IMG/VR virus record: IMGVR_UViG_3300032050_000072
Location: 19,618-83,617 of that record
DNA length: 64,000 nucleotides
Strand: one strand, 5' to 3'
From: a virus
Made by a program: the position numbers and the translations under genes
Shown here: positions 1 to 60,971 of the stretch, piece after piece
Layout: each line of letters opens with the position of its first letter
Position numbering within the stretch: position 1 is the first letter of the stretch
Notes under the pieces: generated by a model
What the model saw: only the letters and a program-made list of their open reading frames with translations
What the model was told of the DNA's origin: nothing
Database searches by the model: none

Positions 1-1976
1 GCCTGCATCAACGCACCTTTCTTGAGCGCGTCGAGAATCTTCGGCTTCATGCGGCCTTCCAGGTCGTCGCTCGCTTTGACCCAATCGTCGAGCCGGTCGA
101 TCACTTCCTCTTGCAGCGTGCGGACCATCAAGATCGCAGCCCGCCCCTTGGCGATCTTCTCGGGCTCGATCTCACGACAGCAGCCCAAGCAGGCCGAGAC
201 GATTTCCTCGTCGACATTGCCGCACTCGTCAGCCCCAGTGCCGTCCGGGTACAGCCGCACTTGCGACTCGCCGATCGACATCAGGTACGACTCCAGCAAA
301 ATCGCGGTATCTTCGTGGTCGCCACCGGCCCCGCGTGACGCCGCCTCGGCATCGTTGGCTGGCAGATCAGGAAACGCCTTGGCGAGATTCGCCTTGATCC
401 TCGTGGCCTGCTTCGAGAAATACTTCCGCAGCGTCGGCACGGTCGACGAAACCAGACCATCCAGGTCCGACTCAACCGATCGCGTGATCGTGGCAATCGC
501 CCGCTCGTCTTCCACGCAACTTGTTGCGGGCAGCTTTTCGTTGCAGCAGGTCGACCGCTGCCCGGCTTCGATATCACCGGACAGCGGCCTCCCTGTCTGC
601 GCTGACTTGGCAACCGGCACCGCGTCGGCATTGCTGCCGTCGATAGGCGGCTGGTTTTGATCGACTTGGTTCTGGTCTATTGGAGCCGCCGGATCGCCCT
701 GTGGAGCCGCCGCTGGCTTCATTTGGAGTTCATATAGCCAGCGCGGAACGTCGCCCCACGGCACCTTGGGCTCGCCTCGCTTCTCGCGGATTTCATTGAC
801 CGTCAGGATGCCCGTCAAGGCATCGCGGTTTTCGAGTTGGTTGTCGAGAGCCCGCTCGGCGGGGACCGGATTATCGAACTCGACGCACAGGTCGTCGCCG
901 AACTCGATCGCCAGCGACTTGTTGATCTTCTCTTGAATCTGCACCAGCCTCGGCCAGATCGTCTCCATTGCGAAGACGCGCTCTTGGCTCGCGGTGTTGC
1001 TGTTGTTGGCGTTCTCGACCACACCGGCCAGCAATGGCGGCACGCCGAAGATGCCCAGGATTTCGTCGCGCGTGAACGCCGCCGAATCTTTGAACGCCAT
1101 TTCGCCCCAGGCCCGCTGCGAAGCGATCGGCTTCACACCGCCATAGAGCAGCACCGGCATCCCGGCCTTGTTCACGCCCGTATGCCGCTCGATCAAGTTC
1201 GCCATCATCCTCTTCCAGCCCGGCTCGTCGAGCATCGAGTCGGTCGAGAAATAAAGGCTCGACAGGATATCCTGATCGAACGCCTTTAGCTGTGCCCGCT
1301 TGATCGAATCGTTGGCCGACTTCGCCTCGGCAGCCGCCGCCAGCGTCCCCCAGCCCCAGAAGCGATCGCGCGGATTGTCGTGCTTGATATGCACGATGTC
1401 GGCCCGTGGAATCTGGATCGCCTCGCCTCGGCCCGCCAGAAACTCGTAGCCCCAGAGAACCTCGCCGTCCGTGTGCAGCGGCCTGACGTACTGCGACGGC
1501 AGCACCCAAAGCTCGACCACCTTGCCTCGCCGGTCGCGAACCTTGAGCCAGATGGCATTGCCGGTCAACTCCAAGAACATCACCGTCTGCGACCAGAACT
1601 CGCTCTTGGTGTCGAGCGGGTTTGGGTTTTCGATCAGACGAACGAGTTCGTTCTTCGGGTCGGTGATCTCAACCGGCTTGTCGCCGTTACGGTTCATGCG
1701 GTAGACCCGCATTGGCACTCGCGCGACGCCATTGCGGATTCGATTGACCGCGACGAAGACCCAGCCGGTCATCGACTGGACTTGCTGTGCCACCGACAGG
1801 CCGTTTTGGGCCTTGGTGGTATTCTGGAACCCAAACGCCAGCCGCAGCCGCTCGTTCAAGGCTTCCATATCGGCAGCCCGTTGAATGAACTGCTGATTGG
1901 CGATCGGCGCGCAGAACTCCGCGCCAGGATAATCGCTTGCCTGCCCGTCCGTTCGGATTGTGATTTCGGTGCTCAA
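1..1976 (-). CDS. Phage portal protein (HK97-like) with long C-terminal extension; 3' end lies beyond the left edge of the window
   Basis: Missing from the ORF track because it runs off the window. Manual translation from TTG 1976 (SD-like AAGGGG upstream; alternative ATG 1868) gives WVFVAVNRIRNGVARVP, LIENPNP, LELTGNAIW, IVHIK, ILGIFGVPP, GILTVNEIREKRG, which are typical portal motifs. The frame stays open to position 3. Confidence 0.9.
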   Translation of the reverse strand, partial: MSTEITIRTDGQASDYPGAEFCAPIANQQFIQRAADMEALNERLRLAFGFQNTTKAQNGLSVAQQVQSMTGWVFVAVNRIRNGVARVPMRVYRMNRNGDKPVEITDPKNELVRLIENPNPLDTKSEFWSQTVMFLELTGNAIWLKVRDRRGKVVELWVLPSQYVRPLHTDGEVLWGYEFLAGRGEAIQIPRADIVHIKHDNPRDRFWGWGTLAAAAEAKSANDSIKRAQLKAFDQDILSSLYFSTDSMLDEPGWKRMMANLIERHTGVNKAGMPVLLYGGVKPIASQRAWGEMAFKDSAAFTRDEILGIFGVPPLLAGVVENANNSNTASQERVFAMETIWPRLVQIQEKINKSLAIEFGDDLCVEFDNPVPAERALDNQLENRDALTGILTVNEIREKRGEPKVPWGDVPRWLYELQMKPAAAPQGDPAAPIDQNQVDQNQPPIDGSNADAVPVAKSAQTGRPLSGDIEAGQRSTCCNEKLPATSCVEDERAIATITRSVESDLDGLVSSTVPTLRKYFSKQATRIKANLAKAFPDLPANDAEAASRGAGGDHEDTAILLESYLMSIGESQVRLYPDGTGADECGNVDEEIVSACLGCCREIEPEKIAKGRAAILMVRTLQEEVIDRLDDWVKASDDLEGRMKPKILDALKKGALMQ

Positions 1977-2030
1977 GGTTTAACCCCTTTGCACCGTCCC
2001 AGGTCTGCCTTGGCGGGCAGGTTGTATTTC

Positions 2031-2137
2031 GAGGTTCGGACAGCTTCGGTCTATTTGCTTAATTCAACCGGGCCACTCTCGAACGACTTGTCGTAAGCAA
2101 ATGCCGCAGTCGTCGCGAGCCTTTCGGCACGAACCTC
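2031..2137 (-). ncRNA. Candidate structured RNA A, directly 3' of tRNA-Trp
   Basis: Closing stem GAGGTTCG/CGAACCTC, GCC-GAAA-GGC hairpin, and internal 9-bp stem ATTTGCTTA/TAAGCAAAT. Confidence 0.5.
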
Positions 2138-2139
2138 AA

Positions 2140-2214
2140 GCATCCACCCAGGGAATCGAACCCCGCCACTCGCTTTTGGAGAGCAAGTCGCCAGCCTTGG
2201 TACATTGGCGGATA
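2140..2214 (-). tRNA. tRNA-Trp(CCA), atypical D-arm
   Basis: Acceptor TATCCGC/GTGGATG, anticodon loop CTCCAAA, T-loop GGTTCGATTCC. Confidence 0.7.
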
Positions 2215-2227
2215 TAGATCGCTGATC

Positions 2228-2335
2228 GGCGTTTGCGCTCGTACGTTTTCCAACGGCGGAATCCTTGTTTCGCGGGCGGCATTTCGCTCTAGCCTATAGC
2301 CTTGGCGACGTTCCGCTCGCACCCGGTTTGACGCC
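2228..2335 (-). ncRNA. Candidate structured RNA B between tRNA-Thr and tRNA-Trp
   Basis: Nested pairings GGCGT/ACGCC, TGCG/CGCA, ACGT/ACGT and CCAAGGC/GCCGTTGG form an irregular rod. Confidence 0.4.
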
Positions 2336-2369
2336 CGGTTTTCCGTTTATTCACCAATCAACGATCAAA

Positions 2370-2441
2370 AGCCAGCGGAGGGACTTGAACCCCCGACCCG
2401 CTGTTTACAAAACAGCCGCTCTGCCACTGAGCTACGCGGGC
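2370..2441 (-). tRNA. tRNA-Thr(UGU)
   Basis: GCCCGCGTAGCTCAGTGGCAGAGC...GCTGT-TTTGTAA-ACAGC...GGTTCAAGTCC; canonical cloverleaf. Confidence 0.93.
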
Positions 2442-2450
2442 AATTTCAGG

Positions 2451-2540
2451 CGGAAGCGGTAGGACTCGAACCCACAAGCCGATCTTTCGATTCGGCCACC
2501 TGTTTTCAGGACAGGCCCCTCATCCAGCCGGATCACTTCC
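2451..2540 (-). tRNA. tRNA-Ser(UGA), long variable arm
   Basis: Anticodon arm CCTGT-CCTGAAA-ACAGG, long variable hairpin, G73, T-loop GGTTCGAGTCC. Confidence 0.85.
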
Positions 2541-2547
2541 GTATCAG

Positions 2548-2618
2548 TGGACCGTCGCAGAATCGAACTGCGATCTCCCGGTTGCAGGCCGGGCGTCTTC
2601 CCGTTTGACCAACAGCCC
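2548..2618 (-). tRNA. tRNA-Ala(UGC)
   Basis: Acceptor GGGCTGT/ACGGTCC with G3:U70 and A73; anticodon arm CCCGG-CCTGCAA-CCGGG. Confidence 0.8.
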
Positions 2619-2626
2619 ATTATCAG

Positions 2627-2698
2627 AGTCGCGGGTGGGACTCGAACCCACGGCATCTAGTTTGGAAGACTAGCGTTCTGCCGCTGAACTACCACGAC
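2627..2698 (-). tRNA. tRNA-Gly(UCC)
   Basis: CTAGT-CTTCCAA-ACTAG anticodon arm, U73, T-loop GGTTCGAGTCC. Confidence 0.92.
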
Positions 2699-2706
2699 TT
2701 GTGCGC

Positions 2707-2840
2707 TGCACGGCGATCACATACGCGATCTTTAAGCGGATCAGCCCTAGTGGCAGGTCGACAACTGACTGAGGCTTGAGAATCCTTGTCGCCAGCGAGC
2801 AAGCTCGCGGACGCTGCGGCTAGTGCCGCGTCACCGTGCA
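2707..2840 (-). ncRNA. Candidate structured RNA C between tRNA(CAU) and tRNA-Gly
   Basis: A 10-bp closing stem TGCACGGTGA/TCGCCGTGCA encloses hairpins GCGGC-ACTA-GCCGC, GCGAGC/GCTCGC, CGACAA/TTGTCG and GATC/GATC. Confidence 0.55.
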
Positions 2841-2842
2841 AG

Positions 2843-2916
2843 TGTCAGGGGTGGGACTTGAACCCACGATCTCCAGCTTATGAGGCTGGCGAGATAGCCG
2901 ACTTCTCTACCCTGGC
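2843..2916 (-). tRNA. tRNA with CAU anticodon (Met or Ile2)
   Basis: CCAGC-CTCATAA-GCTGG, T-loop GGTTCAAGTCC; C2:A71 mismatch in the acceptor stem. Confidence 0.85.
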
Positions 2917-2926
2917 ATTGACTTCT

Positions 2927-2954
2927 ATCTTATGGCTATACCGAAATCGGTCAA
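2927..2954 (-). promoter_or_regulatory. Probable sigma70 promoter of the tRNA cluster
   Basis: TTGACC-16 nt-TAAGAT about 10 nt upstream of the first tRNA. Confidence 0.55.
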
Positions 2955-2992
2955 GGGTTTTCGAGCCTCGATGCCCGCAACTTGTTGCGGAT

Positions 2993-3024
2993 AAAAACCC
3001 CGGCCAGCACGAACTGGCCGGGGT
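2993..3024 (-). terminator. Rho-independent terminator
   Basis: CCCCGGCCAG-TTCGTG-CTGGCCGGGG followed by TTTTT, after ORF 3044..4279. Confidence 0.85.
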
Positions 3025-3043
3025 CGCCAAGAACCTGAGACGG

Positions 3044-4279
3044 TTAGGACCGTCCCACTAATGATCGCTTGATCGCCTCCCGTAGCGTAGTCCGCAGCGG
3101 CACCTTGATCTCGGGCGGCACCGTCTTCAAAAATCCTCGCGGCAAATTATCGACCAGAACCTCACTCCACTTGCCGCTTGCCGCGAGCCCGAGAATCTGC
3201 GGAGCGTGATGCCGACCCTCGCCAGCGTCGTACTTGCTGACCTCGATACTGCCGTCGCATCGAATCACCGCGCTGACCGTGAAGTCCTCGGACCATTCGA
3301 CGAACTTTAGCTCATTACTCCAGGCATTGACATCGAACCTCCTGAAATTGATCGCCGGATGGTTCGGCTTGGGCTGGAACGCAACCTCACGCCAGTGCCC
3401 AGGTGTCGCGGTGATCGCCTCAAGCTCCGCGATCGTCCACGGTGGCTTGCTGCCCGTTGCTTCGTAGAAAGCCTCGTTCGTTACGTCGCCGCTAGCATCG
3501 ACAAACCAAACGCGACCACTCACGGAGTCGGTATCGAGAAACTGGAACTTGGCACCTTTCGTCTCGAATCGCCGCACCTTGCTGAACGGCTTGATGACGT
3601 ACGGAATCCAGACGCCACGCCCCACATGCTTGTCGATCGTGCGAACGTCCCAGCTATCGACGCCTTCGGTGGGCTTGCCGTCGTGGCCGATCGCCACCGG
3701 AAACAGGCTGTCGCTCAACTGCTCAACGTAGTGGACCCGGCTCCAGATGCCCGTGAAATTATTGTACTTGTCGCCGTAGCCGACTCCAGAGAGTTCGCCG
3801 TTAAAGCTCTGAAAATAGATCGCCCGCTTCGGATAATGGTCGGCCTGCGGAGCGACCGCATTGGCGTGGTCGGCGGCGTAGATGACTTTCGAGTGTTCAC
3901 CGAACGTGTCGCGGTAAATCCTGTGGTTCGTCTGGTCGTTCCCGTGCCAGTCTTCGTTGATTCTGAAATCGACGGTGCCGTCCGGGTTGATCCGGTCGAT
4001 GCACTTAACGCCGCCAAAATCACGCTCGGCAAACAAGAACGGGTGATGATCGAAGACCTCGACAAAATCGCCTTGCACGACCGAACAGCAGACCGTAAAC
4101 GATCTTAAGGTCGATTGGAGACTACTGTCGTCAAAGTAGTGAGCCAGCCCGCCATGCTCGACGGCTTGTTCTTTGCTCTCGATCTGCCAGTAGAAGTTGC
4201 CGCGACGGTTTGGGTCGGTTGGCACGAATCGGCGTGGATATCGCCGCTCCTCGTTCAAAATATCCAGCACCTTGCTCAT
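3044..4279 (-). CDS. Hypothetical protein with C-terminal TLREAIKRSL tag
   Basis: 411-aa ORF with GGAG SD; no family recognised. Confidence 0.75.
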   Translation of the reverse strand: MSKVLDILNEERRYPRRFVPTDPNRRGNFYWQIESKEQAVEHGGLAHYFDDSSLQSTLRSFTVCCSVVQGDFVEVFDHHPFLFAERDFGGVKCIDRINPDGTVDFRINEDWHGNDQTNHRIYRDTFGEHSKVIYAADHANAVAPQADHYPKRAIYFQSFNGELSGVGYGDKYNNFTGIWSRVHYVEQLSDSLFPVAIGHDGKPTEGVDSWDVRTIDKHVGRGVWIPYVIKPFSKVRRFETKGAKFQFLDTDSVSGRVWFVDASGDVTNEAFYEATGSKPPWTIAELEAITATPGHWREVAFQPKPNHPAINFRRFDVNAWSNELKFVEWSEDFTVSAVIRCDGSIEVSKYDAGEGRHHAPQILGLAASGKWSEVLVDNLPRGFLKTVPPEIKVPLRTTLREAIKRSLVGRS

Positions 4280-4356
4280 GACATTCGCTCCAAAAGACAG
4301 CCACGGCGGCGACGCTCGCTAGCACCTGCCGCCGTGGCACACCACCACAGTGCTCC

Positions 4357-5001
4357 CTAGCTAAACTGCTCGTAGATATCCCGGCAGATCGACTCCCATT
4401 CGCTGAAATGGGCTTGCTCCTCCTCATTCAGCGGCTCTTTGTTCGCGGCTTTCGTGGCGGCACGCTCACCGATCTCGAAGACATGCTTCCAGTCTTGGCC
4501 CTTCTCGGCGGCGATCTGACGCAGCCGCTCGCGGCCCAGCATCCGGCATCGCATCATCGAAATGCCTTCACCGGCCTTGACGATGCTCAGACTGGATCGC
4601 ATCATTTCGCCGACGCTCTTGCGGATCGTCAACAGCATCGCCAGTGCCGACTCCAGAAGTACCCGGCTTTCGCCGTCGCTCGATGCCTTGTCGATCAGCA
4701 TCGGCTCGACCCGAGCCAAGTCGCGGTCGCACTCCTCTTTGCTGTCGTAATTGAGCGGCATGTCGTCGGTGCATTGCGTGAACCGGACTGCCGACTTCAT
4801 CAGCATGACGGCCAGCGTCATCATCGTGCTGCCGACCTCGGCCTTGCTGCACATGCCATCGGCGGATTCCCGCTCGATGTCCATCAGCGTCTCTTCGTAC
4901 ATCGCGAACGCCTCGTCGGCGATTGCGGCGATCGTCTTCGGCGCTGCAATCACAGCCTCGACCAACTCAACATCCTTGACTTCCTTCGCTGCGGCAACCA
5001 T
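4357..5001 (-). CDS. Hypothetical alpha-helical protein
   Basis: 214-aa ORF with GAGGAG SD. Confidence 0.7.
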   Translation of the reverse strand: MVAAAKEVKDVELVEAVIAAPKTIAAIADEAFAMYEETLMDIERESADGMCSKAEVGSTMMTLAVMLMKSAVRFTQCTDDMPLNYDSKEECDRDLARVEPMLIDKASSDGESRVLLESALAMLLTIRKSVGEMMRSSLSIVKAGEGISMMRCRMLGRERLRQIAAEKGQDWKHVFEIGERAATKAANKEPLNEEEQAHFSEWESICRDIYEQFS

Positions 5002-5034
5002 TGCTTGTTCTCCTCGAACTGTGGGGTGGAAAAT

Positions 5035-5247
5035 TTAACCGAACACGACCAGCCAGCCTCGAAAGCTCTCGATCATTGAAGCCCGCACCTTCAAGTGCGT
5101 GATCTCGGCCAGTGCGGCAGCCGCCCGACGCTTGCAGGCATCGCCGAACACCGAACCGCCGAACTTGATGTAACCATCGTTCGCATTGATCGAACCGCCG
5201 AACCGCTTGGCGATCAGCTTGACTTGCTCTAGAACTTGCTGGCTCAT
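5035..5247 (-). CDS. Small hypothetical early protein
   Basis: ATG follows the GAGATCAAGATC leader downstream of promoter 5292-5320. Confidence 0.7.
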   Translation of the reverse strand: MSQQVLEQVKLIAKRFGGSINANDGYIKFGGSVFGDACKRRAAAALAEITHLKVRASMIESFRGWLVVFG

Positions 5248-5291
5248 GATCTTGATCTCGCTTGACTGGTGGTTATCGTGTTGGCTCCCTA

Positions 5292-5320: not shown

Positions 5321-5344
5321 TAAGAAAAATCAGCCATTTGAAAA

Positions 5345-5947
5345 TTATCCGCAACTTGTTGCGGGCAAGGATCGCAACAGGCTCGCGCGAACGGCATCAC
5401 GAAGCGTCGGCTTGATTTCCACGGGCAACTCGACGGGCGGCTCGATCTCCACGGGCGTCGCGTTCACGACCGGCTCAAACCGCCAGCAGAACGGCCTGAC
5501 CAGATTGCCCTTGCGATTGATAATGCAGAGCGACGGGAAGTGATTCCGATCGTTATCCAGTACACTCTTGTCGAGTGACTTCTGGAAGTCTTCGCCGAGA
5601 CGAACGAACTCGAACTCGTCGCCATTCTCGCCATAGCAGCGATCGCGATCTGTCTCTATCAGCCGCATCTTGTCGCCCGGCTTGAGCCCGTCGACCCAGC
5701 GCAGGTCTTCCGGCAGCGAGTGCAGCTTGTTCGTGTGGAACAGCGGCTCGAAGAACGATATGAAGTCTGCGAGCCAAGCCGACCATGCCGTTCCGCGTAG
5801 CGTGAAGAGAATCGTATCTTTCCCGTGACACAAATCGCGTCCGGTGACTGTCTCGATATCACCGGGCTGGCAGTCTAACAGATTCTTGATGCAGCGAATC
5901 TTGTCGCCGACCTGCAAGCGGTAGACCCAAGTTGGTATCGCGGTCAT
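5345..5947 (-). CDS. Hypothetical protein, two W..L(K/Q)xGDK repeats plus C-terminal tag
   Basis: WVYRLQVGDKIR, WVDGLKPGDKMR; ends PTLRDAVRASLL. Confidence 0.75.
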   Translation of the reverse strand: MTAIPTWVYRLQVGDKIRCIKNLLDCQPGDIETVTGRDLCHGKDTILFTLRGTAWSAWLADFISFFEPLFHTNKLHSLPEDLRWVDGLKPGDKMRLIETDRDRCYGENGDEFEFVRLGEDFQKSLDKSVLDNDRNHFPSLCIINRKGNLVRPFCWRFEPVVNATPVEIEPPVELPVEIKPTLRDAVRASLLRSLPATSCG

Positions 5948-7961: not shown

Positions 7962-7963
7962 GA

Positions 7964-8314: not shown

Positions 8315-8358
8315 TTTCGATCTCCGCAACTTGTTGCGTGTTTGGTGGTGGTTGTTGA

Positions 8359-9000: not shown

Positions 9001-9047
9001 CAACAAAAATATGAAAAATCGAAAAAATCCCGCAACAAGTTGCGTGG

Positions 9048-15946: not shown

Positions 15947-16554
15947 ACTCGCACCGCGACTTTCTTGCGACCACGCAACTTGTTGCGGGCAGTTTTCTTG
16001 CGAACCACGACAACCTTCCGCTTGGCGTTGAGCTTTACGCTGACCTCGCGGTGAACGCCTGACGACGGCTTGAAGTTGCCGTTATTGGCAATGATGTTTC
16101 GCAGGATCGCCGCCATGACCTGACGATCTCTGTCGTCTCGATCCCAACCGTCGCGGTCGCTGACGATCTCATTCCACGGCTCAAAATCGCTCGCCGAAGT
16201 CATGTGGAATCGCTCGTAGACATCCTCGATTTCAAGCAGCAAGCTACGATTGAAAACGTCTGCGAGTTTGTCTCTGACTTCAAATCCGCATGACGGAGCG
16301 ACTTTGCCATCTGGGTAATTGATCCAGCCGGTGTCGAATCTTCGCAATCGACCAACCAGCAGCGACCCGATCGCGCAGACCTCGCAGCCATTCAGGTCGC
16401 GTTTACTGCGGACCTCGGAGCCGTTGTCAAACGAGCCGCAAACGTAGACATGCGCTGGCTCGATTTTTCCATGCTCCAACTGCCACAGTGCGTCAGCGGC
16501 AATGTCGACAGCCATACGGTTCTTGCCTTTACGGCACTTGAATACTCGCTTCAT
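15943..16554 (-). CDS. Hypothetical protein
   Basis: CEVCAIGSLL; ATGA-coupled to neighbours. Confidence 0.65.
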   Translation of the reverse strand: MKRVFKCRKGKNRMAVDIAADALWQLEHGKIEPAHVYVCGSFDNGSEVRSKRDLNGCEVCAIGSLLVGRLRRFDTGWINYPDGKVAPSCGFEVRDKLADVFNRSLLLEIEDVYERFHMTSASDFEPWNEIVSDRDGWDRDDRDRQVMAAILRNIIANNGNFKPSSGVHREVSVKLNAKRKVVVVRKKTARNKLRGRKKVAVRV

Positions 16555-17066
16555 GCTCGTTGTCCTCCTCGTTTTTTGCCACGCAACTTGTTGCGGGCTG
16601 GCTTTTCGGAACTGGGAAATTTCGCGGTCGGATTCTCAATCAGCGTCGCTAGCCATTCGCCGATGAACTCGGCGGCGTCATCCGGGTGGGCGGTGTCGAA
16701 TCTTGCCTTGTAGCGATCCTCGACGACGCTTGAGTTGTTCGTTCTCAGCAACTCGACCTCCAGCCAAGTCGCACTCACCGGATCGGTCGAATTGTCAGTG
16801 CCGCTCGACGCACGAACACGAAGCTCGCCCTGCCGCCACGGAATCATCACATCAAACACCGCGACACCCGCGATCACCTTGGCCGGGCATGGCTCGTGCC
16901 GGTTGATATCAGGGCGAATCTCGAAGATCGGAGCAAGCTCGGCCTCGACCTCTCGCAGTACATTGATGGCTCGCGCCATCTTGACCTTAGCCAGCGATTC
17001 GATCTGATCTTTCTGCCACTTGATCTCGTCTGTCTTGCGGCTGAAAGCAGCCAGTGCTCGACTCAT
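16551..17066 (-). CDS. Hypothetical protein
   Basis: Start ATG 17066 with GGAGG SD. Confidence 0.6.
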   Translation of the reverse strand: MSRALAAFSRKTDEIKWQKDQIESLAKVKMARAINVLREVEAELAPIFEIRPDINRHEPCPAKVIAGVAVFDVMIPWRQGELRVRASSGTDNSTDPVSATWLEVELLRTNNSSVVEDRYKARFDTAHPDDAAEFIGEWLATLIENPTAKFPSSEKPARNKLRGKKRGGQRA

Positions 17067-18061: not shown

Positions 18062-18088
18062 GTGTCCGCAACTTGTTGCGTGGTTCAG

Positions 18089-22510: not shown

Positions 22511-23338
22511 TCATGTTTTCCGAAAAAATCTGGAAAATAATCGGCCCGCAACAAGTTGCGTGGCAGCCTAGCGTTTTCGCCATTCGGCCAGCGATCGCAC
22601 GATAGATGCGACCGGAATCCCGATCGCCAGTGCGAGCAAAGAATAGGCCCCGAGCTTGATCGCGAACACCAAGTCTGGAACCAACCGCAGATAATCCCAG
22701 AGCAGCCGCAGGCCCTCACGATCGCCAATGTCGTTCACGGCTTACCAGCCTCCGGCCCAGAAAGTTCGCAGCCATTGCCACGCAGGCACCTTAAACAGAC
22801 CGCCGTACGTCAAGCCATCCATGACCACGACTGCGGCAGCCACCAGCAACAAAACGATCGCCCGCCATCGCCTCATGGTGCATCACCAACCTTGCCGCCG
22901 ATCCAGTTCGGTTTGTCGCCTAGCGGCTTAGGCTTGATCGGCTCGCGAGTTTCGCCATTCCAGACTTCGACATCAAAGCCCTTGCTGGTGAGCCGCACCA
23001 TCACGGCGCTATCGTCCGCTTCGATGTAGGTGGTCTTCGCGGTGATCTGCTTGACCGTCACCGGCCCGACAATCGGCGGAAACAGCTTCGCAACGACATA
23101 GACCGAGCCACAGGCGATCGCCGCCACAACGACAATCGTCTTGATCGCGAACTTGAAAAAATCGTCGCCGCCCATCATCGACCCCTCTTCGCCGCAAGGC
23201 GAAACAAAGCGAGCGAGCACATGACCAGCCCGATCGCGACCCACATATTGACCTGACGAAATGCCGCCAGTTCACTCGCCGCCTTCTCGATGGCCGCGAT
23301 CACTCGCTCGACGTTTTGAGCCCAGTCGGCCTGCATGA

Positions 23339-25828: not shown

Positions 25829-26737
25829 TTAAGGCTTGAGCCACAGGGCTAGATCGCCCGCGCTCATAAAGCCGGTTGCCGTTTTGACCGCCTTGCTGCG
25901 GCCAATGCCACGAACGCCAGGATCAAGAATCATCGTTGTCGGACAAACCCGCACGCGATAGCGATCGAACGCAGCGTGATCCTCTTGCGAGTCCAAGTAG
26001 ACGAACTTGTACTTTTGCAGAGCCGCCTTGGCTGGCTCCTTGTCGAGTTCGGCCTTGAGTTTGCGACACGGCTCGCAGCCGACCATGCCGAATATCGCCA
26101 GCACTTTCTTGCCGTCCTGCTTGGCCTCGGCCAGAGCGGCGTCGAGCTTGTTATTGCCCCGAGCTTCCGGTTCGCGGTAGGAAATACGGCGGCACGACTG
26201 GCAACCCGACTGAACCTTGCTGGCTCGATTCGGACACGACTCGCACTGGCAGTCGCCGCACTTACACGGCCCGCCACTGAGCAAGCAAGTCACCCGCTGC
26301 GGCGTAATCGCCTCGCGATGGCACTCACTGCTCCAGCTTCCGTCAGCCTGCTGGCGGTAGATCACGAGCTTTTCGCCTTCGCCCCATTGCTCGTCGAGTT
26401 CCTTGCGGTACTTGCTCAGCACGCTCACTAGCACGGCCCTGTCGGCAGCCGGATGCAGCGTGTTGTCGCTCACCAGCACGGCCAGCGGCGTCTTGTCGGC
26501 CAGGGCCTTGTCGTAGGCAATCTTGTAATCGTCGACCGGCTCACGCTCGAAAGAACTATCAGGCGGCAGGCCGACATCGACAGCCACCGCAAGCTCATCG
26601 GCGCGCGACTCGAACACAGCCACGACCGGCTTCGACTCCGCAACAAGTTGCGTGACGGCTGGCTTGGCCTGGAGCGAGAACGAATTGAAAACGCAAACGA
26701 CGATCGCCGTCAGCAGCGAGAACTTTCCCGAGTTCAT
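25829..26737 (-). CDS. Secreted Cys-rich thioredoxin-fold protein
   Basis: Signal peptide, Cys cluster, AKQDGKKVLAIFGMVGCEPC, cis-Pro motif VCPT. Confidence 0.8.
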   Translation of the reverse strand: MNSGKFSLLTAIVVCVFNSFSLQAKPAVTQLVAESKPVVAVFESRADELAVAVDVGLPPDSSFEREPVDDYKIAYDKALADKTPLAVLVSDNTLHPAADRAVLVSVLSKYRKELDEQWGEGEKLVIYRQQADGSWSSECHREAITPQRVTCLLSGGPCKCGDCQCESCPNRASKVQSGCQSCRRISYREPEARGNNKLDAALAEAKQDGKKVLAIFGMVGCEPCRKLKAELDKEPAKAALQKYKFVYLDSQEDHAAFDRYRVRVCPTTMILDPGVRGIGRSKAVKTATGFMSAGDLALWLKP

Positions 26738-29125: not shown

Positions 29126-30196
29126 TTAGCCGATAGCATTGGTGAGCCGCTCCCATAGCTCGTGGACAATTCCCCGCACTAGGTAGCGGCGATCCTCGTC
29201 GTCCAGGTTTTGCTTGGCTTCGATCAGCTTGGCAGCGCGAATGATATCGTCGCCCATGAACTCAAAGCGATCCCGCCCACACTCAGGCCCGCAGACATCC
29301 TTGCCAGATTCGGACACGCAACAAGTTGCGGGCTCAGACTCCGGTGCCGCCTCGACCACTTCCTTTGGCTTTTCGACTGCCTTCTCTGGTACAGGATACA
29401 GGGTGTCGGTTGCTTTCACCAAGTCGGTTAGCTCCTCGCGGGTGTGACCGGCAGCGATCCAATCACTGACATCACCTTTCGGTGGCAGGCCCGGCAGCCG
29501 CACGATCTTGATCGACGACGCCTTACCGACCAGTGACTCGACAATATCGCGGGCGTGTTGCTCGCCGACTGAGTAGCCGAGCTTTTCGTCGACCGGATCG
29601 TTATCGGGCAACACGACCACATGACAGCCCTTGAGAAAATCCGAGTAGCCAGCGTTCCATTTGCCAGCACCCATCGGGTTACAGGTCGCCACCAGCCCGA
29701 GCCCGACCAGCGTCTCGACATCCTTCTCGCCTTCGGGCACGAACACCACTCGCTTCTTGGCGTTAGCGATCAACTCCGGCAGCCGGTAAAGCACCCGACG
29801 ACACTCACCCAGACCCCAGACCCAGCCGTCGCCTTCCGGTCGGCGCTGGCGAAACTGCTTGCCCTCTAGCCGCACGACTTGGTACAGCAGCTTGTGCTCT
29901 TCGTCGCGGTAGTCGTATGTCTTCTCGATGTTACTGCTCATCACCGTCCTCCTTCTCGGTTTCTGACTGTCAAAAAAATCGCTCGCCTTGAGTCCAATCG
30001 CCTGAATCACCTGCTGGAACGAACACCCTCGATGGCAGCGCATTAGCAGGCGGTTATTCTTGACCGCGATCGACAAGCTCGCGTTATGCTTGCCATCGGT
30101 TTCGTGGGCCGGGCAATGGGCCTCCCACCCCCAGCGACGTTCGCGGCACTTGTGCAGCTTCTCGAATACGCCAGAGAACTGCGGCGGATAATTCAC
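29126..30196 (-). CDS. DNA primase (zinc-binding plus TOPRIM)
   Basis: CPAHE..SLSI..CHRGC, YDYRDE, PEGEKD, LPDND, KGDVSDW. Confidence 0.88.
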   Translation of the reverse strand: MNYPPQFSGVFEKLHKCRERRWGWEAHCPAHETDGKHNASLSIAVKNNRLLMRCHRGCSFQQVIQAIGLKASDFFDSQKPRRRTVMSSNIEKTYDYRDEEHKLLYQVVRLEGKQFRQRRPEGDGWVWGLGECRRVLYRLPELIANAKKRVVFVPEGEKDVETLVGLGLVATCNPMGAGKWNAGYSDFLKGCHVVVLPDNDPVDEKLGYSVGEQHARDIVESLVGKASSIKIVRLPGLPPKGDVSDWIAAGHTREELTDLVKATDTLYPVPEKAVEKPKEVVEAAPESEPATCCVSESGKDVCGPECGRDRFEFMGDDIIRAAKLIEAKQNLDDEDRRYLVRGIVHELWERLTNAIG

Positions 30197-31625: not shown

Positions 31626-31643
31626 GCCGCAACAAGTTGCGGA

Positions 31644-31995: not shown

Positions 31996-33396
31996 CTAAG
32001 CGTCAACGGATAATTTGCGAAGATTCTGATTTAGGTGCGGCCATTCGTGGTAGCTGTGAATGGAGGCGAAGACGCCCCAGCAAGCGTGACCCAAATGGTC
32101 TTCGCTTCGGTCGCCGCCGAGCCACAAGAACAGGTGCCGAATCGCGTGATTGAGTAAGTCGCTGACAGGAAATCCACGTAACCAATTATGGTCACTATAT
32201 TTGTCGGCTCCTTCCTTGTAGACCGCCGCCAATCGCTCCATGCCACGGAACGGCAGCCCGTCACCACAGAACTCGCCGCCTTCAATCTCGTTGATCGCAT
32301 CGAGCAGGCAGTATGCCGCACGCTCTAGCTGGCCCGAATCCCATTGACCATAAGACGCCAGTAGCATTGCGTCGCACGCCGTCTCGACAAGCTCGCTCGC
32401 TTTCTTGGCGACATCGACGAAACGCCGTTGGTGCTTGCGGATTTCACGCAAGGCGACCGGCGTGATGAGATCAAATCGCACGCCATCGGCGTCCGTGCTG
32501 CGCGTGGCTCCGGTTTCGTGCGTGCGACGGTCGGCCTCTGGCTTTGGCGATGTTTCGATCGTTCCAGATTGGCACGGCTCACCCGGTATTCCGCTGAGAG
32601 TCTCGAACTCGCGAGTATCCAGACGGCCTTCCCATGAATCGACAGCCACACCTGGACCGATCACCGCGACAGCGTGAGCCCAGCCGCTCGCCTCCGCAAC
32701 TTGTTGCGGTGTCATGTCGACCGGCTTTAGCTGCGGCTTGATGGCGGCACTGAGTTCGCAGAAGACCTCCAGAAATAACTGCTCGGCGTCTTCCCACTCC
32801 AGACATTGCAGCGGCTCCCAGCCGCCAGCGAGCAGATCGCTCGTGCCGTTCCAGGCCCACGTTTCGCCACGGTCGGCCATGATGCACTTCGACTCGTAGC
32901 GAGTCACATCGTTGTCGGCCTGCTTGACGAAGCCAGCCACTTGAACATTGTCGGTCAACTCGCCGACTCCGGTGTGCTCGTCAATCAACCGCTGCACCTT
33001 GCGGTCGAGTTCATCCAAGAACCGATAGCAATCTGGGAATCGCCTCTGGAGCATACGCTTGCGCGGTCGAATCATGTCTTGGTTGTAGGCTTCGTGGCCG
33101 TCGTGCATCAAAGCGAGCATCGCGATCCCATTGAGCGGAACCTCGCCACTGATGCCAGCCGACTTGGCAATCTCGACCGCCCGCTTGCTGACCAGCACGC
33201 TATGCTGGGCATTGGAATAGAACACCTGGCAAGCCCCGTTGTAGCGACAGGTCAAGGCTAGAGCGTGAGCAATGTGCTCGATATCCACATCGTCGATCGT
33301 CATCTTGGTCGGCGTCACGAGCGGACCTTTGTAGGTCACTGTGCCACCGTCTTCGCTCACCAAGCCGTCAATCGTTTCATCTGCTTTGCGAATCAT
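31996..33396 (-). CDS. HD-domain (YfbR-like) nucleotidase fused to DUF5664-type dNTP diphosphohydrolase domains
   Basis: IAHAL..CRYNG..YSNAQHS..LMHDGHEAY; GATRS..RFDLITP; EGADKYSDHNWLRG..HAIRHL..EDHLGHA. Confidence 0.8.
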   Translation of the reverse strand: MIRKADETIDGLVSEDGGTVTYKGPLVTPTKMTIDDVDIEHIAHALALTCRYNGACQVFYSNAQHSVLVSKRAVEIAKSAGISGEVPLNGIAMLALMHDGHEAYNQDMIRPRKRMLQRRFPDCYRFLDELDRKVQRLIDEHTGVGELTDNVQVAGFVKQADNDVTRYESKCIMADRGETWAWNGTSDLLAGGWEPLQCLEWEDAEQLFLEVFCELSAAIKPQLKPVDMTPQQVAEASGWAHAVAVIGPGVAVDSWEGRLDTREFETLSGIPGEPCQSGTIETSPKPEADRRTHETGATRSTDADGVRFDLITPVALREIRKHQRRFVDVAKKASELVETACDAMLLASYGQWDSGQLERAAYCLLDAINEIEGGEFCGDGLPFRGMERLAAVYKEGADKYSDHNWLRGFPVSDLLNHAIRHLFLWLGGDRSEDHLGHACWGVFASIHSYHEWPHLNQNLRKLSVDA

Positions 33397-35072: not shown

Positions 35073-35173
35073 CGCGTCACCTGAGTGGAATAAATAACCC
35101 GGCTTGAGCTACCGGGCGGGAGCGATTCGGGAGGAGCGAATCGACAAGCGTGGATCACGCAACTTGTTGCGGA

Positions 35174-36147: not shown

Positions 36148-36966
36148 TTACTTGCCTGCGTTCAATTCCACCGAACGCACTGAGATCATTTCGCCTAATT
36201 GTTCCAACTCTGGCCCTGAGAAGCCGTAGGTGGACTTCGCAAACTCATTGCCAAGCTGAGCCAGCTTCGCCAGATCGGCAGCCCTGGCGATCGCCGCCTC
36301 GGCCCGCTTGAGTAGCATTTGCTTGTTGCTCTTGGCTTGATCGGCGCTCTGCGGCCTCGCCGGATTCGACATTGCCTGGGTGGCATTGCGTCGGCCAGCA
36401 CCAGCAGCGCCCGCTGGCCTGCGGTCGGACGGCTTTCGCTCCGGCACGCGGTCGTCGTGGTCGCTGTCGTCCATGTCGCCCTCTTCGACCGGGATGCACA
36501 GCCCGAGCGTCATGGCATACTTGTAGGCAACGCTGTGGGCCTTGTTCGCCGCCTTGTCGCCGTTGTGATCGCAGGCCGAACCGAACGCCTCGAAGCTGAC
36601 ATTCGATCCGTCTGGCGCGTAGAGCGTGACCCGCAGGTGAATCTTGGCGAAGATTACCCAGCGGAACTTGGCTTTCAGACGCAGCCATTCATCCAGCTTT
36701 GCCAGTCGAGGGTCTTCGGTCGCCACAAGGTCTTCGGTCGCGGAGACGATCGCAGTCGAGAGTGTGATGCCGCACTTGGTCAGCGCCGGACCCACGGCAT
36801 TGAGAATGTCGTCGATCCCTCGGAAGCGATAACCCTGGCTGTCGTTTTTCTTGGCTTTGACGATCGCGCCGATCTCGGCCCGCACCATCGGAACCAGCCG
36901 GAAGATTTCAGGCCCGCAACTTGTTGCCGCTGGCTCCGGCGTCTCTTCTGCATTTTCACGGATCAC
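36148..36966 (-). CDS. ERF-family ssDNA-annealing protein
   Basis: QGYRFRGIDDI, DKAANKAHSVAYKYA, DSD. Confidence 0.8.
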   Translation of the reverse strand: MIRENAEETPEPAATSCGPEIFRLVPMVRAEIGAIVKAKKNDSQGYRFRGIDDILNAVGPALTKCGITLSTAIVSATEDLVATEDPRLAKLDEWLRLKAKFRWVIFAKIHLRVTLYAPDGSNVSFEAFGSACDHNGDKAANKAHSVAYKYAMTLGLCIPVEEGDMDDSDHDDRVPERKPSDRRPAGAAGAGRRNATQAMSNPARPQSADQAKSNKQMLLKRAEAAIARAADLAKLAQLGNEFAKSTYGFSGPELEQLGEMISVRSVELNAGK

Positions 36967-37862
36967 GATTCGATCTCCTGTTGTTCGGTTGCTTCGCCGC
37001 TGTAGCCGAGAACCTCAATCTCGATCACTCCGCGATCGGTTTCGCTCGGCCACGGATATTTGTCGAAGTTCGGCTGGCCTTTGAGTTGTGCGATCTCGTC
37101 GACGATGGCCCGCATTTCGACTGACGCCTCAAGCATCGTCTTCGGACCCAGCCGATAGACCGCCGTATCGTGCGGCCATTGATTGCCGACGACCAAAAAA
37201 TAAAAGCCTTGCAGGTAATCCTCGGGCATCCCGAACGCGAGATTCCTGCCCTCGCAGTACAGTGCCGCCGACAGGTCGTAACGGAACTGCCGCACAGCCC
37301 GCCGAAAGCCAGCCGGACTTGGATCGGCAAGGCACTTGATATCGAGCACCGTGCCGATGATGCCGTCGTCGATCACGCGATCGAACCGGCACTTGAGCGG
37401 CAGGCCGCAGACCGGCTCGGTCCAGAACAGCGAAAGCTCATTGGCTCCCTGCTGTTGAAGTAGCCGCCCGGCCTCCTCGTGATCCCACAGCGAGTTCGCC
37501 ATGATCTCGATCCGCTCCAGGTCTTTCTCTTCGATCGCAACCTGATGCGGCTGGAGCTTGTCGGCAAACTCGCGGAACGCCTTGCTAGCCGATCCATGCG
37601 AACAGACCTGAACTATCGACCCGAACTCACTCGGCTCCAGCACCGCAGCGTGAACCGCCGTGCCGATATTCGCCGAGTAGCCGATTTTCTTAGACTCGCG
37701 ATCTTTCTTGATCCGGTAGTGCCAGTATTCTTTCGGGCTCTTGGCGAACAGCTTGAGCGTCGAACTGCTGTCGTGCTCCGTGCCGTGGTACTCGTGATTC
37801 GGCATCGCCTCAATCACTTCCAAGGCACCGACCGCTCGAATTGTGTCAGCTATGTTTTGCAT
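36963..37862 (-). CDS. PD-(D/E)XK exonuclease (RecE / exonuclease VIII-like)
   Basis: EYH..SSSTLK, GTAVHAAVLEP, ELSLFW, KCRFD..LDIK. Confidence 0.85.
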   Translation of the reverse strand: MQNIADTIRAVGALEVIEAMPNHEYHGTEHDSSSTLKLFAKSPKEYWHYRIKKDRESKKIGYSANIGTAVHAAVLEPSEFGSIVQVCSHGSASKAFREFADKLQPHQVAIEEKDLERIEIMANSLWDHEEAGRLLQQQGANELSLFWTEPVCGLPLKCRFDRVIDDGIIGTVLDIKCLADPSPAGFRRAVRQFRYDLSAALYCEGRNLAFGMPEDYLQGFYFLVVGNQWPHDTAVYRLGPKTMLEASVEMRAIVDEIAQLKGQPNFDKYPWPSETDRGVIEIEVLGYSGEATEQQEIES

Positions 37863-41288: not shown

Positions 41289-41388
41289 AAATATGACCAG
41301 TGCCGCTCTCGCGGAAACGGCACCGGCCCCTGCGGTAGATGGTAGTTGCAATGCCGCAGGCCAATTGCAAGCTCCGCAACTTGTTGCG

Positions 41389-45959: not shown

Positions 45960-46259
45960 CAACAAAAACAAAAAAATCCGAAAAATTATCGCTCGGCGTA
46001 GACGCCCCAGCGGACATGATAGAACGCCCACCAAGTCGACCAGATGATCGCGATCGGCAGCCCGCCGATCAGGTATCCCGACATCGCCCCGACGAAGAAC
46101 CACAGGGCGGCGACCTTCCGCAGCAGGCGGCGATTCTCGACGGCGGCTGCCTGCACTCTGGCCCGCAGGTCGCGATTATGGTTCACGAACTCGCTGGCGA
46201 TCTCTGGCGGCGCGTATTGAGCCAACCAGCGAACCGCCGCAACTTGTTGCGGAGTCAGA

Positions 46260-47970: not shown

Positions 47971-48018
47971 GACTTGATCTCCTGAGATTGGTGGTGGTTG
48001 CCCGCAACTTGTTGCGGG

Positions 48019-49872: not shown

Positions 49873-49925
49873 CAGATTGATCTCCTGTGGTGGTGGCGTC
49901 CGCAACTTGTTGCGTGACTGTATTA

Positions 49926-55691: not shown

Positions 55692-55732
55692 GGCTTTGAC
55701 TCTTGTTTGATTGGTGTCGTGTTGACTATCTA

Positions 55733-55761
55733 AGTATATCGGCAGGATAGACCTATGTCAA
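55733..55761 (-). promoter_or_regulatory. Sigma70 promoter / operator cassette 13
   Basis: TTGACA-17-TATACT. Confidence 0.85.
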
Positions 55762-55813
55762 CAGTGTTTTCAAAAAAATACGAAAAATAACCGGCCACGC
55801 AACTTGTTGCGGA

Positions 55814-56440: not shown

Positions 56441-56448
56441 GGCCCGCC

Positions 56449-58101
56449 TCAGTTGTGAGTGAACAGCGTATTCTGGACGTGAACGAGATTCTCCTCGCCG
56501 TAGCGTTCGATGATCCGTTCGATGTAGGTCCAGTCGGCGTCCTTGGCCTTGTCGAGCCAGCCCGCCTCGATCGCGACCTCGCGCTGCACCATCACGCAGC
56601 CGCAGTCGATATTGCCGTGGTGCAGGACCGATCTCAGCGGCTTCCATTGCCAGTAGTTATGCGTCATGTCGCAATAGCCACCAACCGCGCCTGGCTGCTT
56701 CTCGATCGCGTTGACCATGATGTCGCAGAAGCCCGGCGCGTAGTAGTTGTCGCCGTTCGTAATCACCACATAGTCGCCAAGCTCCATCTTGCTGACGATA
56801 TTGAGCCCAAGCTGCCGCAGCGTGTGCCCCCAGTCGTTGTACCGCTTGCGTGTCGTGTACTGGAGAATCCTCGGCTCGCAAACCCGCCGCAGCTTGGCGA
56901 CGACCGGCTCCGGCTTAACCAGCGGCCCATCGTGATAGAGCACCAGCTTCCAGTCTTTGTGCCGCTGATCCAGCAGCGACTCGATCAAGACCGGGTAATA
57001 CTCGTAGAACGGCGCAATGAACGTCACGGTTCGCCCGCGCTCGGCTGGCGATTCCAAGGCTGTGATCGGCACCGGCGTCGGCTCGTCGTGGATCGCCGCA
57101 GGCTCACTCGGCAGATCGAGTTCGTCTTCTGCGAACTTCTTCCGCTGCCTGCCTTGAGCGATCGCCGCCAGGGCCTCGATCGTTTCGCTGGTGATGTTCT
57201 GACCTCGCTCGACGGCCAGCATCGCCACTCGCTCGACGATATCAGGAAGCTCGTCGAACCGCTCGGACGGCTTGCCGTACAGTGCCGCCGCCGTGAAGCT
57301 CCGCAGGTGGATTCGACGTTCGTCCTCTTCGATCTCGCCGGTCGTTTCTTCGCCGACGATGATCGCGTTGAGACTGGCGTCTTTGAGCATTTCGTTGATG
57401 AGCACTTCCGTGTCAGCCCGCTGCGTCTCTTCGCCGGACTCCCACAGGTGCCGATAGTTATTCACCAAGCGGCGAATCGTCCAGCCCGCCTTGATCCGGT
57501 CGATCTGCGGCATGTGCCAGAGCGAAAGCGTATGCGACAGCATCCCCTGCCACCACTCGCATCCTGATCGCGGGATGCTTTGATAGCCGATCGCCGCCGC
57601 CATTTCGCGGTCACAGCGTTCAATCCATTCCTCGACAAGGTTCTGCTGCGTGACGAGGCAGTCCGAATGAACCGTGAGCATCCACTCGGTCTGCACGCAA
57701 GCCTGCCCGGCCTCCATCGCGATCGACACCAACTCGGACGAGTGTCGACCACCGTGGCAGTTGATCTGATGGACTTCGAGGTCATCGGCCCGCAGCGCCA
57801 GCACGTCGTCGAGCATCGAGTCTTGCGTGCCCGTGTCGACCACCACGATATAGACCGGCTCGGTCTGACTGCGCAGCATCGCCACACAGAGCTTGAGCAG
57901 GTCCGGCGTATTGCAATGCGGCACGACCGCCGTCACGCGATGCTGCCAAGGTTTCTTCTCGATCGCCCCTTCCCAGGGTGCCTGCGTGACAGTCGCCCGC
58001 CACGTCGCCGGACAGACAAGCTCGTCGCGGGTGAATTTGCTGTTCGGTTGCCGTGTCTGCGATAGGCGGCGATTGATCGCCTGGGAGATTTTGCGGCTCA
58101 T
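56449..58101 (-). CDS. Tandem GT2 glycosyltransferase
   Basis: VVPHCN..VVDTG..HSD; second domain IAPFY..YHDG..NGDNYY..DADW. Confidence 0.8.
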   Translation of the reverse strand: MSRKISQAINRRLSQTRQPNSKFTRDELVCPATWRATVTQAPWEGAIEKKPWQHRVTAVVPHCNTPDLLKLCVAMLRSQTEPVYIVVVDTGTQDSMLDDVLALRADDLEVHQINCHGGRHSSELVSIAMEAGQACVQTEWMLTVHSDCLVTQQNLVEEWIERCDREMAAAIGYQSIPRSGCEWWQGMLSHTLSLWHMPQIDRIKAGWTIRRLVNNYRHLWESGEETQRADTEVLINEMLKDASLNAIIVGEETTGEIEEDERRIHLRSFTAAALYGKPSERFDELPDIVERVAMLAVERGQNITSETIEALAAIAQGRQRKKFAEDELDLPSEPAAIHDEPTPVPITALESPAERGRTVTFIAPFYEYYPVLIESLLDQRHKDWKLVLYHDGPLVKPEPVVAKLRRVCEPRILQYTTRKRYNDWGHTLRQLGLNIVSKMELGDYVVITNGDNYYAPGFCDIMVNAIEKQPGAVGGYCDMTHNYWQWKPLRSVLHHGNIDCGCVMVQREVAIEAGWLDKAKDADWTYIERIIERYGEENLVHVQNTLFTHN

Positions 58102-60947: not shown

Positions 60948-60971
60948 GGTTACTCCGCAACAAGTTGCGTG

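Follow-up and report, generated by a model that had tools for sequence, protein, structure and literature searches.

Why should a phage carry one and the same palindrome, nearly free of variants, every few kilobases along its whole chromosome? The question is raised by a 64,000-nt stretch of viral DNA (the window), the final 64 kb (positions 19618-83617) of IMG/VR record IMGVR_UViG_3300032050_000072, a single contig of 83,617 bases in which the 14-bp word CGCAAC(TT/AA)GTTGCG recurs throughout. The repeat is real and strongly selected, and it belongs to a kind that has been described in phages, without a function, since at least 2015. From the sequences, we think it probable that the copies form a lattice on double-stranded DNA at which a dimeric phage-encoded protein docks, with P0001, a predicted protein of ParB/Noc/KorB type, as the most likely reader. 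New here are the 18-bp repeat unit, its tight packing between stop codons and Shine-Dalgarno (SD) sequences, and its over-even spacing.

Number and anatomy of the repeat

An initial annotation, made from the letters of the window alone, had reported 20 exact copies and one variant, dispersed at about one per 3 kb and far above chance. All 20 were recovered in place, the first at 515-528 and the last at 60956-60969, together with a one-mismatch copy at 36915-36928. The exact 14-mer found no match in any of 100 dinucleotide-preserving shuffles, by which a chance origin of the repeat is rejected. The scan of the full genome that the annotation had suggested raised the count to 26 exact copies in the 83.6-kb record, one per ~3.2 kb. 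The centre, described as always TT or AA, is so in all 26 copies, AT and TA never occurring; on the + strand of the window TT is found 14 times and AA 6 times.

Conservation of the family is all-or-none. Next to the 26 perfect copies the genome holds one with a single mismatch, two with two mismatches and five with three, and since ~6.6 three-mismatch copies are expected by arithmetic, the latter are at chance level. Outside the full sites the half-word CGCAAC is scarce, with 11 occurrences counted over both strands where 6-mers of equal composition average 62 (sd 28).

For the flanks, all 26 copies were aligned, giving 52 half-sites. Position -2 is C or T (Y) in 47 of these and position -1 is C or A (M) in 50, with the same preference on both half-sites, and the symmetric flank classes therefore define a unit of 18 bp, YM-CGCAAC-WW-GTTGCG-KR. 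The annotation had let the flanks extend the dyad to 16 bp; the (A/C)...(G/T) flanks that it saw are present, but they pair in just 6 of 26 copies, all C..G and all within the 20 window copies, where ~13 would be expected from the marginals, and the site is better described by base classes. Among the other -1 flank pairs, A..G occurs 8 times, C..T 10 times and T..G twice, and the A..T combination is absent (Fisher P=0.0095). Symmetric flank classes without pairing fit two subunits that each read YMCGCAAC, and not a stem.

Placement, spacing and orientation

Copies were classified from frame-specific coding scores and stop positions (Table 1 lists those in the window). Seventeen of the 26 are intergenic, in a genome that is ~16% non-coding (P=1.9e-8). 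Exactly 2 nt separate the copy from a stop codon in eight cases, and further copies follow a stop at +3 nt (one), 0 nt (one) and 7-8 nt (two); one lies 7 nt past tRNA-Arg and four elsewhere between genes. The annotation's list of copies just behind stop codons was borne out, the distances being +3 for terL, +2 for open reading frame (ORF) 31644, the ParB-like gene, ORF 48019, a weakly sulfotransferase-like gene and a tape-measure-like gene, and 0 for SSB. A stop at +2 is the closest that TAG, TAA or TGA can approach without breaking the Y-M flank, and the K-R flank often serves as the start of the SD sequence (GCG-GAG), so that the 18-bp unit fits the smallest possible gap. Two intergenic copies follow a CGATATACT -10 box at 11 nt, which places them at ~+5 of the transcript.

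Within ORFs, four copies lie deep inside, in the genes for portal, a thioredoxin-like protein, primase and a 466-aa dATP/dGTP diphosphohydrolase-like protein, four lie within the last 14 codons, and one is ambiguous. Nine in-gene copies had been claimed for the window; we count seven (515, 5350, 15974, 16582, 26639, 29317 and 32695) and an ambiguous copy at 46238, 8 nt past a stop and possibly within the start of a small ORF. That such copies are read in different frames was correct (PATSC/PATCC, RNKLR, PQQVA/TQLVA). Three copies of the repeat share longer flanks, GAAAA.CTGCC-site-TGG.

The adjacent minus-strand genes 15943-16554 and 16551-17267 have in common a terminal ..A-RNKLRG-(K/R)K.. 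tail, and the portal copy at 515 has the same longer nucleotide flank, in a frame different from that of the copies at 15974 and 16582.

Positions 1-258 of the record are identical to 83360-83617 (window 63743-64000), a 258-bp terminal redundancy that implies a unique length of 83,359 bp. Since a metagenome contig identical to the phage (L187) runs over the terminal junction, the record is either circular and closed or terminally redundant. Mapped on a circle, the copies show a spacing more regular than expected by chance: the gaps range from 608 to 6943 bp (n=26), with a coefficient of variation of 0.53 as against 0.95 for random placement (P=0.00055) and 0.94 for random gene ends (P=0.00045). 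The longest stretch without a copy, 9045-15973, is a DNA-modification cassette.

The minus strand carries ~97 of ~107 scored ORFs, and all copies are therefore transcribed in the same sense. Read as mRNA, 18 have the centre CAAG and 8 CTTG (P=0.076), a split no larger than expected from the A>T bias of the coding strand. Four successive copies at 22547-31641 share one orientation.

Conservation and distribution

Searches for relatives with TerL examined 26 IMG/VR loci and 36 JGI metagenome loci, among which only two metagenome fragments, L059 and L141, are close (85-96% identical to the phage, TerL 99%); L187 is 100% identical. L059 covers four copies, each of them perfect and in syntenic position, and two of these fall in a region of 85.5% identity. 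Eighteen sequencing runs, 'fungus' and freshwater metagenomes among them, are listed as containing this DNA, all stored as contigs and none recorded as RNA; in the four that were compared, the copy at 32695 is unchanged in a 4.4%-divergent contig of a freshwater strain (run X9). The annotation had argued that selection acts on the DNA, and this conclusion stands, since 26 perfect copies face one with a single mismatch, the word is maintained in three reading frames, and 4/4 syntenic copies are kept in the relative.

An IMG/VR scan with the 18-mer gave 19 stretches, of which only L059 (four copies) and L187 (two) were multi-copy, both being this phage or a close variant; a scan with the 14-mer gave mostly single chance matches among the matches listed. 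No recurring 12-mer containing the word was present in 25 IMG/VR TerL loci besides L059, an exact copy was absent from the three metagenome TerL loci scanned for it (L142, L158 and L160), and scans for relatives with P0001 and with the helicase as queries gave nothing. In INPHARED no DNA match was returned by megablast and blastn with 20-kb and 3-kb queries from the phage.

As a possible refutation the annotation had named a motif equally common in the host chromosome as a generic repeat. Distant homologues of P0001 occur mostly in metagenome-assembled genomes (MAGs) of Planctomycetota, a phylum guessed as host from these homologues, and in 5 + 401 genomes of this phylum the word occurred at most three times per genome, like a reversed-word control. 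A host-wide repeat is thus rejected within the 406 Planctomycetota genomes sampled, which may not represent the host phylum. A literature search found no description of this word in the libraries covered, and a search for ParB together with phage-wide palindromes yielded one relevant paper, on Cluster O mycobacteriophages.

Another repeat was met in L202 (IMGVR_UViG_3300024054_000362), a viral contig of 221 kb that encodes a weak homologue of ParB-N and in which GATCGC-N4-GCGATC occurs seven times in 20 kb (1113-19683), with variable loops and a conserved downstream sequence. It is taken as a hairpin-containing family of promoter or operator type and not as the same element.

Candidate readers

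The N-terminus of P0001 gave a weak ParB-like match in PHROGs. A profile of 50 full-length family members matched Noc (7ng0; profile 16-202, E 2.3e-10) and also Spo0J and ParB, the matches covering both the N-domain and the helix-turn-helix (HTH); in the alignment DGRnR corresponds to GERRxRA, NlxRR to ENLQR and the HTH to that of Spo0J. The top Foldseek chains for the AF2 model of P0001 (pLDDT 90.9) were pNOB8 ParB-N, Spo0J, M. xanthus ParB, Noc and KorB. Profile and model together predict the full ParB/Noc architecture of N-domain and HTH, with a CxxC zinc finger replacing the usual dimerisation domain at the C-terminus. A perfect copy lies 2 nt past the stop of the P0001 gene, and the genome's sole one-mismatch copy and one of the two-mismatch copies lie no more than 2.4 kb upstream. 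A homologue 62% identical to P0001 (P0005) is encoded on an 83,944-bp NCBI contig, and for P0006 the identity is 54%.

Two further proteins are ParB-like in part, and for neither P0002 nor P0003 did the likeness extend beyond a ParB-N/Srx part. P0002 gave no homologue in a word-based sequence search; it is its gene, not that of P0001, which the gene of the Xre-type HTH protein P0004 adjoins. PDB searches with P0001, P0002 or P0003 as single sequences gave nothing informative. Further candidate readers are P0012 and a 97-aa ORF at 15003-15296. Among the ~60 of ~107 ORFs scanned with Pfam/PHROGs, no ParA ATPase, no immunity repressor and no transposase-like or HUH gene was identified.

Comparison with known systems

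Among described repeats the closest is a 17-bp dyad of Cluster O mycobacteriophages, TGTTCGGNNNCCGAACA in Corndog (Cresawn et al. 2015, PMC4351075). Corndog has 34 copies with invariant arms and three one-mismatch copies, a centre that is TTT or AAA in 29 of 34 and no orientation rule; many of the Cluster O repeats are intergenic, about a third lie in genes, and they are separate from SigA-like promoters. Their function is given there as unknown, the authors predicting a dimeric DNA-binding protein and mentioning the ParB-like gp90 (PMC4351075). Shared by both systems are dozens of copies genome-wide (in a siphovirus of ~70-80 kb there), invariant arms with few degenerate copies, an A/T asymmetric centre, the lack of an orientation rule, many intergenic copies, independence from promoters, and an encoded protein with ParB-N and HTH, Corndog gp90 matching the P0001 family across N-domain and HTH by hhalign with a probability of 72% (E 3.4e-5). 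The word and the phage are nevertheless unrelated, the likeness to gp90 being remote. In addition, spacing is even here whereas the Corndog copies are denser toward the right end; an integrase is encoded here and none in Cluster O phages; and the 2-bp centre is strictly AA/TT here, with copies packed exactly between stop codon and SD.

The OB sites of the IncP plasmid RK2 number 12. Their reader KorB offers the best mechanistic model, by analogy: as a CTP clamp of the ParB family it is loaded at scattered palindromes, from which it slides up to 1.5 kb (McLean et al. 2025, PMC11790492). Similar here are a candidate reader of apparent ParB family with HTH, a short palindrome dispersed over the replicon (~60 kb in RK2) and the presence of KorB among the fold matches of P0001, the likeness at the level of motifs being limited to GxxR and NxxRR in the alignment. 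The word is different, and the predicted C-terminus of P0001 is a zinc finger.

Palindromes of 14-16 bp are also read by ParB-family HTH proteins in chromosomal parS/ParB and Noc/NBS. Chromosomal parS clusters near the origin, and Noc sites and the SopB sites of prophage N15 are dispersed, not clustered. The annotation had proposed a parS- or NBS-like site for one of three ParB-like proteins. What speaks for this is P0001, with its predicted N-terminal (CTPase-type) domain and HTH; what speaks against it, in contrast to the origin-proximal parS, is the even spread of the present sites over the whole genome without a single cluster. A ParA was not seen in the ORFs scanned. The density of the present sites is also far higher than in parS, Noc or N15, and the word presumably bears no sequence likeness to parS or NBS.

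Putative docking sites for a phage-encoded protein

Symmetric unpaired flanks, no orientation rule, a weak RNA hairpin and even spacing fit a protein site on double-stranded DNA. The annotation's view of a genome-wide protein-binding site agrees with these features, the binding itself being predicted; counting both kinds of reader, P0001 or a conventional repressor, such a site is likely. On this reading selection keeps one copy per ~3.2 kb, fitted where possible into the gap that separates a stop codon from the following ribosome-binding site and otherwise written into a reading frame. Were P0001 to behave like its relatives, it would be loaded at every site and from there spread or slide along the adjoining kilobases, and an even lattice would thereby cover the whole chromosome. 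A tyrosine integrase is encoded, which marks the phage as temperate, and the outcome might be genome-wide silencing or organisation of its DNA.

Several observations weigh against this proposal. ParB-like genes are frequent in phages, so that their co-occurrence with a repeat is weak evidence. Why the centre is only AA or TT is not explained by a symmetric dimer indifferent to it, and the A and C flanks of the half-sites are anti-correlated, a hint of unexplained asymmetry. Along the genome, centres of like orientation cluster (6 runs where 11.5 would be expected; post hoc test, P=0.017), and such runs are unexpected for a fully symmetric function. Placement past stop codons, past a tRNA and at ~+5 of two transcripts would suit an RNA element, too. 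Lastly, no repeated dyad was present in the 15-21 kb around distant P0001 homologues on three viral and four MAG contigs (L199-L201, L191-L194).

A more specific proposal, possible though doubtful, is that the lattice provides loading sites for a phage ParB/Noc-type CTP clamp that coats the whole chromosome as a KorB-like switch or self-mark, and that it is the same device as the Cluster O repeats. Loading of a ParB-type clamp at such lattices, if real, would give viruses a new way to silence, organise or mark a whole chromosome and would account for a feature that recurs in many uncultured phages. Otherwise the sites would still be one half of a compact, easily assayed protein-DNA (or protein-RNA) pair. 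In either case the present phage adds constraints: an 18-bp unit with symmetric flank classes, over-even spacing and an apparently complete ParB/Noc-type candidate reader beside one copy.

Alternative explanations

A 14-bp dyad is typical for dimers of Cro/CI type, and the 13-bp stoperators of Cluster A mycobacteriophages are thought to silence the phage genome. A conventional small HTH repressor, made in the lysogen, might likewise bind the 26 sites and block elongation by RNA polymerase, so that the lytic genes, which lie on one strand, stay silent; candidates are the Xre-type P0004, the HTH_23 protein (17063-17641) or a protein not recognised as such, for example P0012 next to the integrase. 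In a temperate phage with an integrase a stoperator-like role in silencing is possible, and the phage encodes an Xre HTH gene and has 17 of 26 sites in short intergenic gaps and two at ~+5 of transcripts; the likeness to the Cluster A system (L5 gp71) further lies in the copy number of a single short word, two to three dozen, and in its placement mostly within small gaps between the genes of a temperate phage. Stoperators, however, are asymmetric and oriented with transcription according to the Cluster O paper (PMC4351075), whereas the present sites are dyads in both orientations (18:8), and the analogy that the annotation had drawn to stoperators is to that extent not supported. A repressor gene opposite the lytic strand was not identified, the divergent region 37863-38032 beside the integrase module is without a copy, and roadblocks need no even spacing. 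We regard this explanation as unlikely.

An RNA element, in which the transcribed word forms a stem-loop with a CAAG or CUUG tetraloop and acts as the operator of an RNA-binding protein, the target of a hairpin-specific endoribonuclease, a stabiliser or a device that couples cistrons, is in our judgement quite improbable. CUUG is a known stable tetraloop. Ten copies lie 0-3 nt past stop codons, one lies 7 nt past a tRNA, several abut the next SD sequence and two are at ~+5 of a transcript, every copy being transcribed in one sense. The fold is nonetheless weak, at -3.3 kcal/mol for the word and -6.6 kcal/mol with the C..G flank, compared with -19 to -32 kcal/mol for canonical terminators elsewhere in the genome, and on this ground the palindrome was rejected as an intrinsic terminator. 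Two canonical terminators adjoin copies, one directly before the copy at 2976, which thus follows a real terminator, and one ~65 nt after copy g12472; a T-rich tract follows 5 of 26 copies and belongs to the upstream portion of promoter cassettes. The arms do not vary among the 26 copies and show no compensatory changes, the flanks pair less often than expected (6/26 against ~13), the loop varies with orientation (18 CAAG against 8 CUUG), four copies lie deep in ORFs, and an Rfam search of the phage gave tRNAs only.

A DNA-structure or recombination element is very improbable. The word might act as a single-stranded DNA hairpin or cruciform in priming, replication or packaging, as module-boundary homology for ERF and exonuclease, or as a self-spreading palindromic insert; the intergenic copies do resemble inserts of 16-18 bp between stop and SD, three copies have the longer common flank, orientation comes in runs, and the phage encodes ERF, two exonucleases, primase and a Holliday-junction resolvase. 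An indel between phage and relative even begins exactly at the 3' edge of copy 8325, but its other end lacks a copy, its boundaries being formed by GGAG, and the other indel seen lies between two promoter cassettes, not between copies. A stem of 5-6 bp is too weak for extrusion, the ORFs scanned contain no transposase-like or HUH gene, and at the Cluster O repeats, too, the authors saw few if any rearrangements (PMC4351075).

That the word holds the site of a phage methyltransferase-like enzyme, a host nuclease or a host regulator, as modification or restriction target or decoy, is scarcely credible: DNA methyltransferase-like genes are encoded (e.g. 30193-30939, PHROGs), one with a ParB-N protein beside it, but methyltransferase sites are normally 4-8 bp and need neither 14-18 invariant bases nor even spacing, the longest copy-free stretch is the modification cassette itself, and nothing links the enzymes to the word.

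Promoter-leader cassettes

A separate repeat family comprises 16 near-identical sigma70-type promoter-leader cassettes on the minus strand, with the layout TTGACa-N3-5-GTCTAnC-..-CGATATACT to which a CAACCACCACC leader and then GAGATCAAGATCATG are joined. Conservation of GTCTAnC within the spacer points to a second and separate site for a regulator. Five palindrome copies lie 20-36 nt upstream of a cassette -35 box at a distance that is not fixed, and six successive copies (22.5-35.2 kb) have no intervening cassette; the variable distance and the cassette-free run show that the two families are independent. An indel between the phage and L059 is mediated by a cassette pair, not by palindrome copies.

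Table 1. Copies of the repeat and other features, in window coordinates
Feature	Position	Strand	Remarks
Copy	515..528		in ORF; deep in portal gene, frame ..PATSC..
Copy	2976..2989		intergenic; directly after canonical terminator of -24.3 kcal/mol; upstream of tRNA array
Copy	5350..5363		in ORF; last codons of ORF 5345-5947 (..PATSCG*); 30 nt upstream of cassette -35
Copy	8325..8338		5' untranslated region, abuts SD (GCGGAG..ATG); 350-bp indel directly after in relative
Copy	9031..9044		3 nt past terL stop; 30 nt upstream of cassette -35
Copy	15974..15987		in ORF 15943-16554, 9 codons before stop; ..ARNKLRG.. basic tail
Copy	16582..16595		in ORF 16551-17267, 9 codons before stop; ..ARNKLRG.. 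basic tail
Copy	18067..18080		7 nt past 3' end of tRNA-Arg (18088-18161, minus)
Copy	22547..22560		7 nt past stop codon; 36 nt upstream of cassette -35
Copy	26639..26652		deep in ORF 25829-26737 (thioredoxin-like)
Copy	29317..29330		deep in primase gene 29126-30352
Copy	31628..31641		2 nt past stop of ORF 31644-31964
Copy	32695..32708		deep in ORF 31996-33396 (C-terminal dATP/dGTP diphosphohydrolase-like domain)
Copy	35158..35171		2 nt past stop of ParB/Noc-like gene
Copy	41375..41388		0 nt from stop of SSB gene 41389-41811
Copy	46238..46251		8 nt past stop of ORF 46260-46697
Copy	48003..48016		2 nt past stop of ORF 48019-48528; then CAACCACCACC leader and SD
Copy	49901..49914		5' untranslated region, 11 nt downstream of CGATATACT -10-like box, ~+5 of transcript
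Copy	55798..55811		2 nt past stop of ORF 55814-56647; 36 nt upstream of cassette -35
Copy	60956..60969		2 nt past stop of tape-measure-like ORF 60972-63944; 8 nt before next start codon
One-mismatch variant	36915..36928		CGCAACTTGTTGCC, last base C; only such variant in genome; inside ERF gene, 0.8 kb upstream of ParB/Noc-like gene
Two-mismatch variant	37536..37549		may be chance (0.5 expected genome-wide by arithmetic)
P0001	35174..36127	-	best candidate reader, ParB/Noc/KorB-type; 317 aa; predicted N-domain (DGRHR, NxxRR), HTH, C-terminal CxxC zinc finger
P0002	41819..42625	-	ParB-N/DUF6551-like (ESM Atlas); HTH not detected; start overlaps Xre gene end
P0003	14469..14999	-	ParB-N-like with C-terminal zinc ribbon; beside DNA-modification genes
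P0004	42615..42833	-	72-aa Xre/Cro-type HTH, alternative reader
HTH_23 protein	17063-17641		other DNA binder
Tyrosine integrase	38397-39899	+	preceded by 115-aa ORF 38033-38380
SSB	41389-41811		Pfam SSB 6.7e-35
Cassette	5236-5365	-	
Cassette	8504-8619	-	
Cassette	8906-9048	-	
Cassette	20674-20769	-	
Cassette	22189	-	
Cassette	22412-22564	-	
Cassette	37897	-	
Cassette	43242-43382	-	
Cassette	45478-45572	-	
Cassette	45866-45995	-	
Cassette	48438-48541	-	
Cassette	55688-55788	-	
Cassettes	upstream of window	-	3-4 more

Genome context

The sole clear plus-strand unit, 38033-39899, consists of the 115-aa ORF, whose C-terminal tail is very basic, and the integrase. In the divergent region next to it (37863-38032) a cassette-type promoter lies 6 nt from the ATG of an exonuclease gene.

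The 466-aa minus-strand protein that hosts copy 32695 has at its C-terminus a dATP/dGTP diphosphohydrolase N-terminal domain (PF18909, 5.7e-14), a family tied to 2-aminoadenine (Z) genomes. The DNA methyltransferase-like gene at 30193-30939 (minus; phrog_67, 8e-27) overlaps the primase start in the ORF list and is distinct from the modification cassette further left in the window.

Six tRNAs (Trp, Thr, Ser, Ala, Gly, Met) form an array at 2140-2916, and tRNA-Arg(CCT) stands isolated at 18088-18161, in a stretch where, in each of the four runs compared, contigs from other organisms pile up to very high depth. Directly upstream of the tail genes, 53076-58101 carries GT4 and GT2 glycosyltransferase, S-adenosylmethionine (SAM)-methyltransferase and weak sulfotransferase-like genes, a cluster that may serve in modification of the virion or of the host surface.

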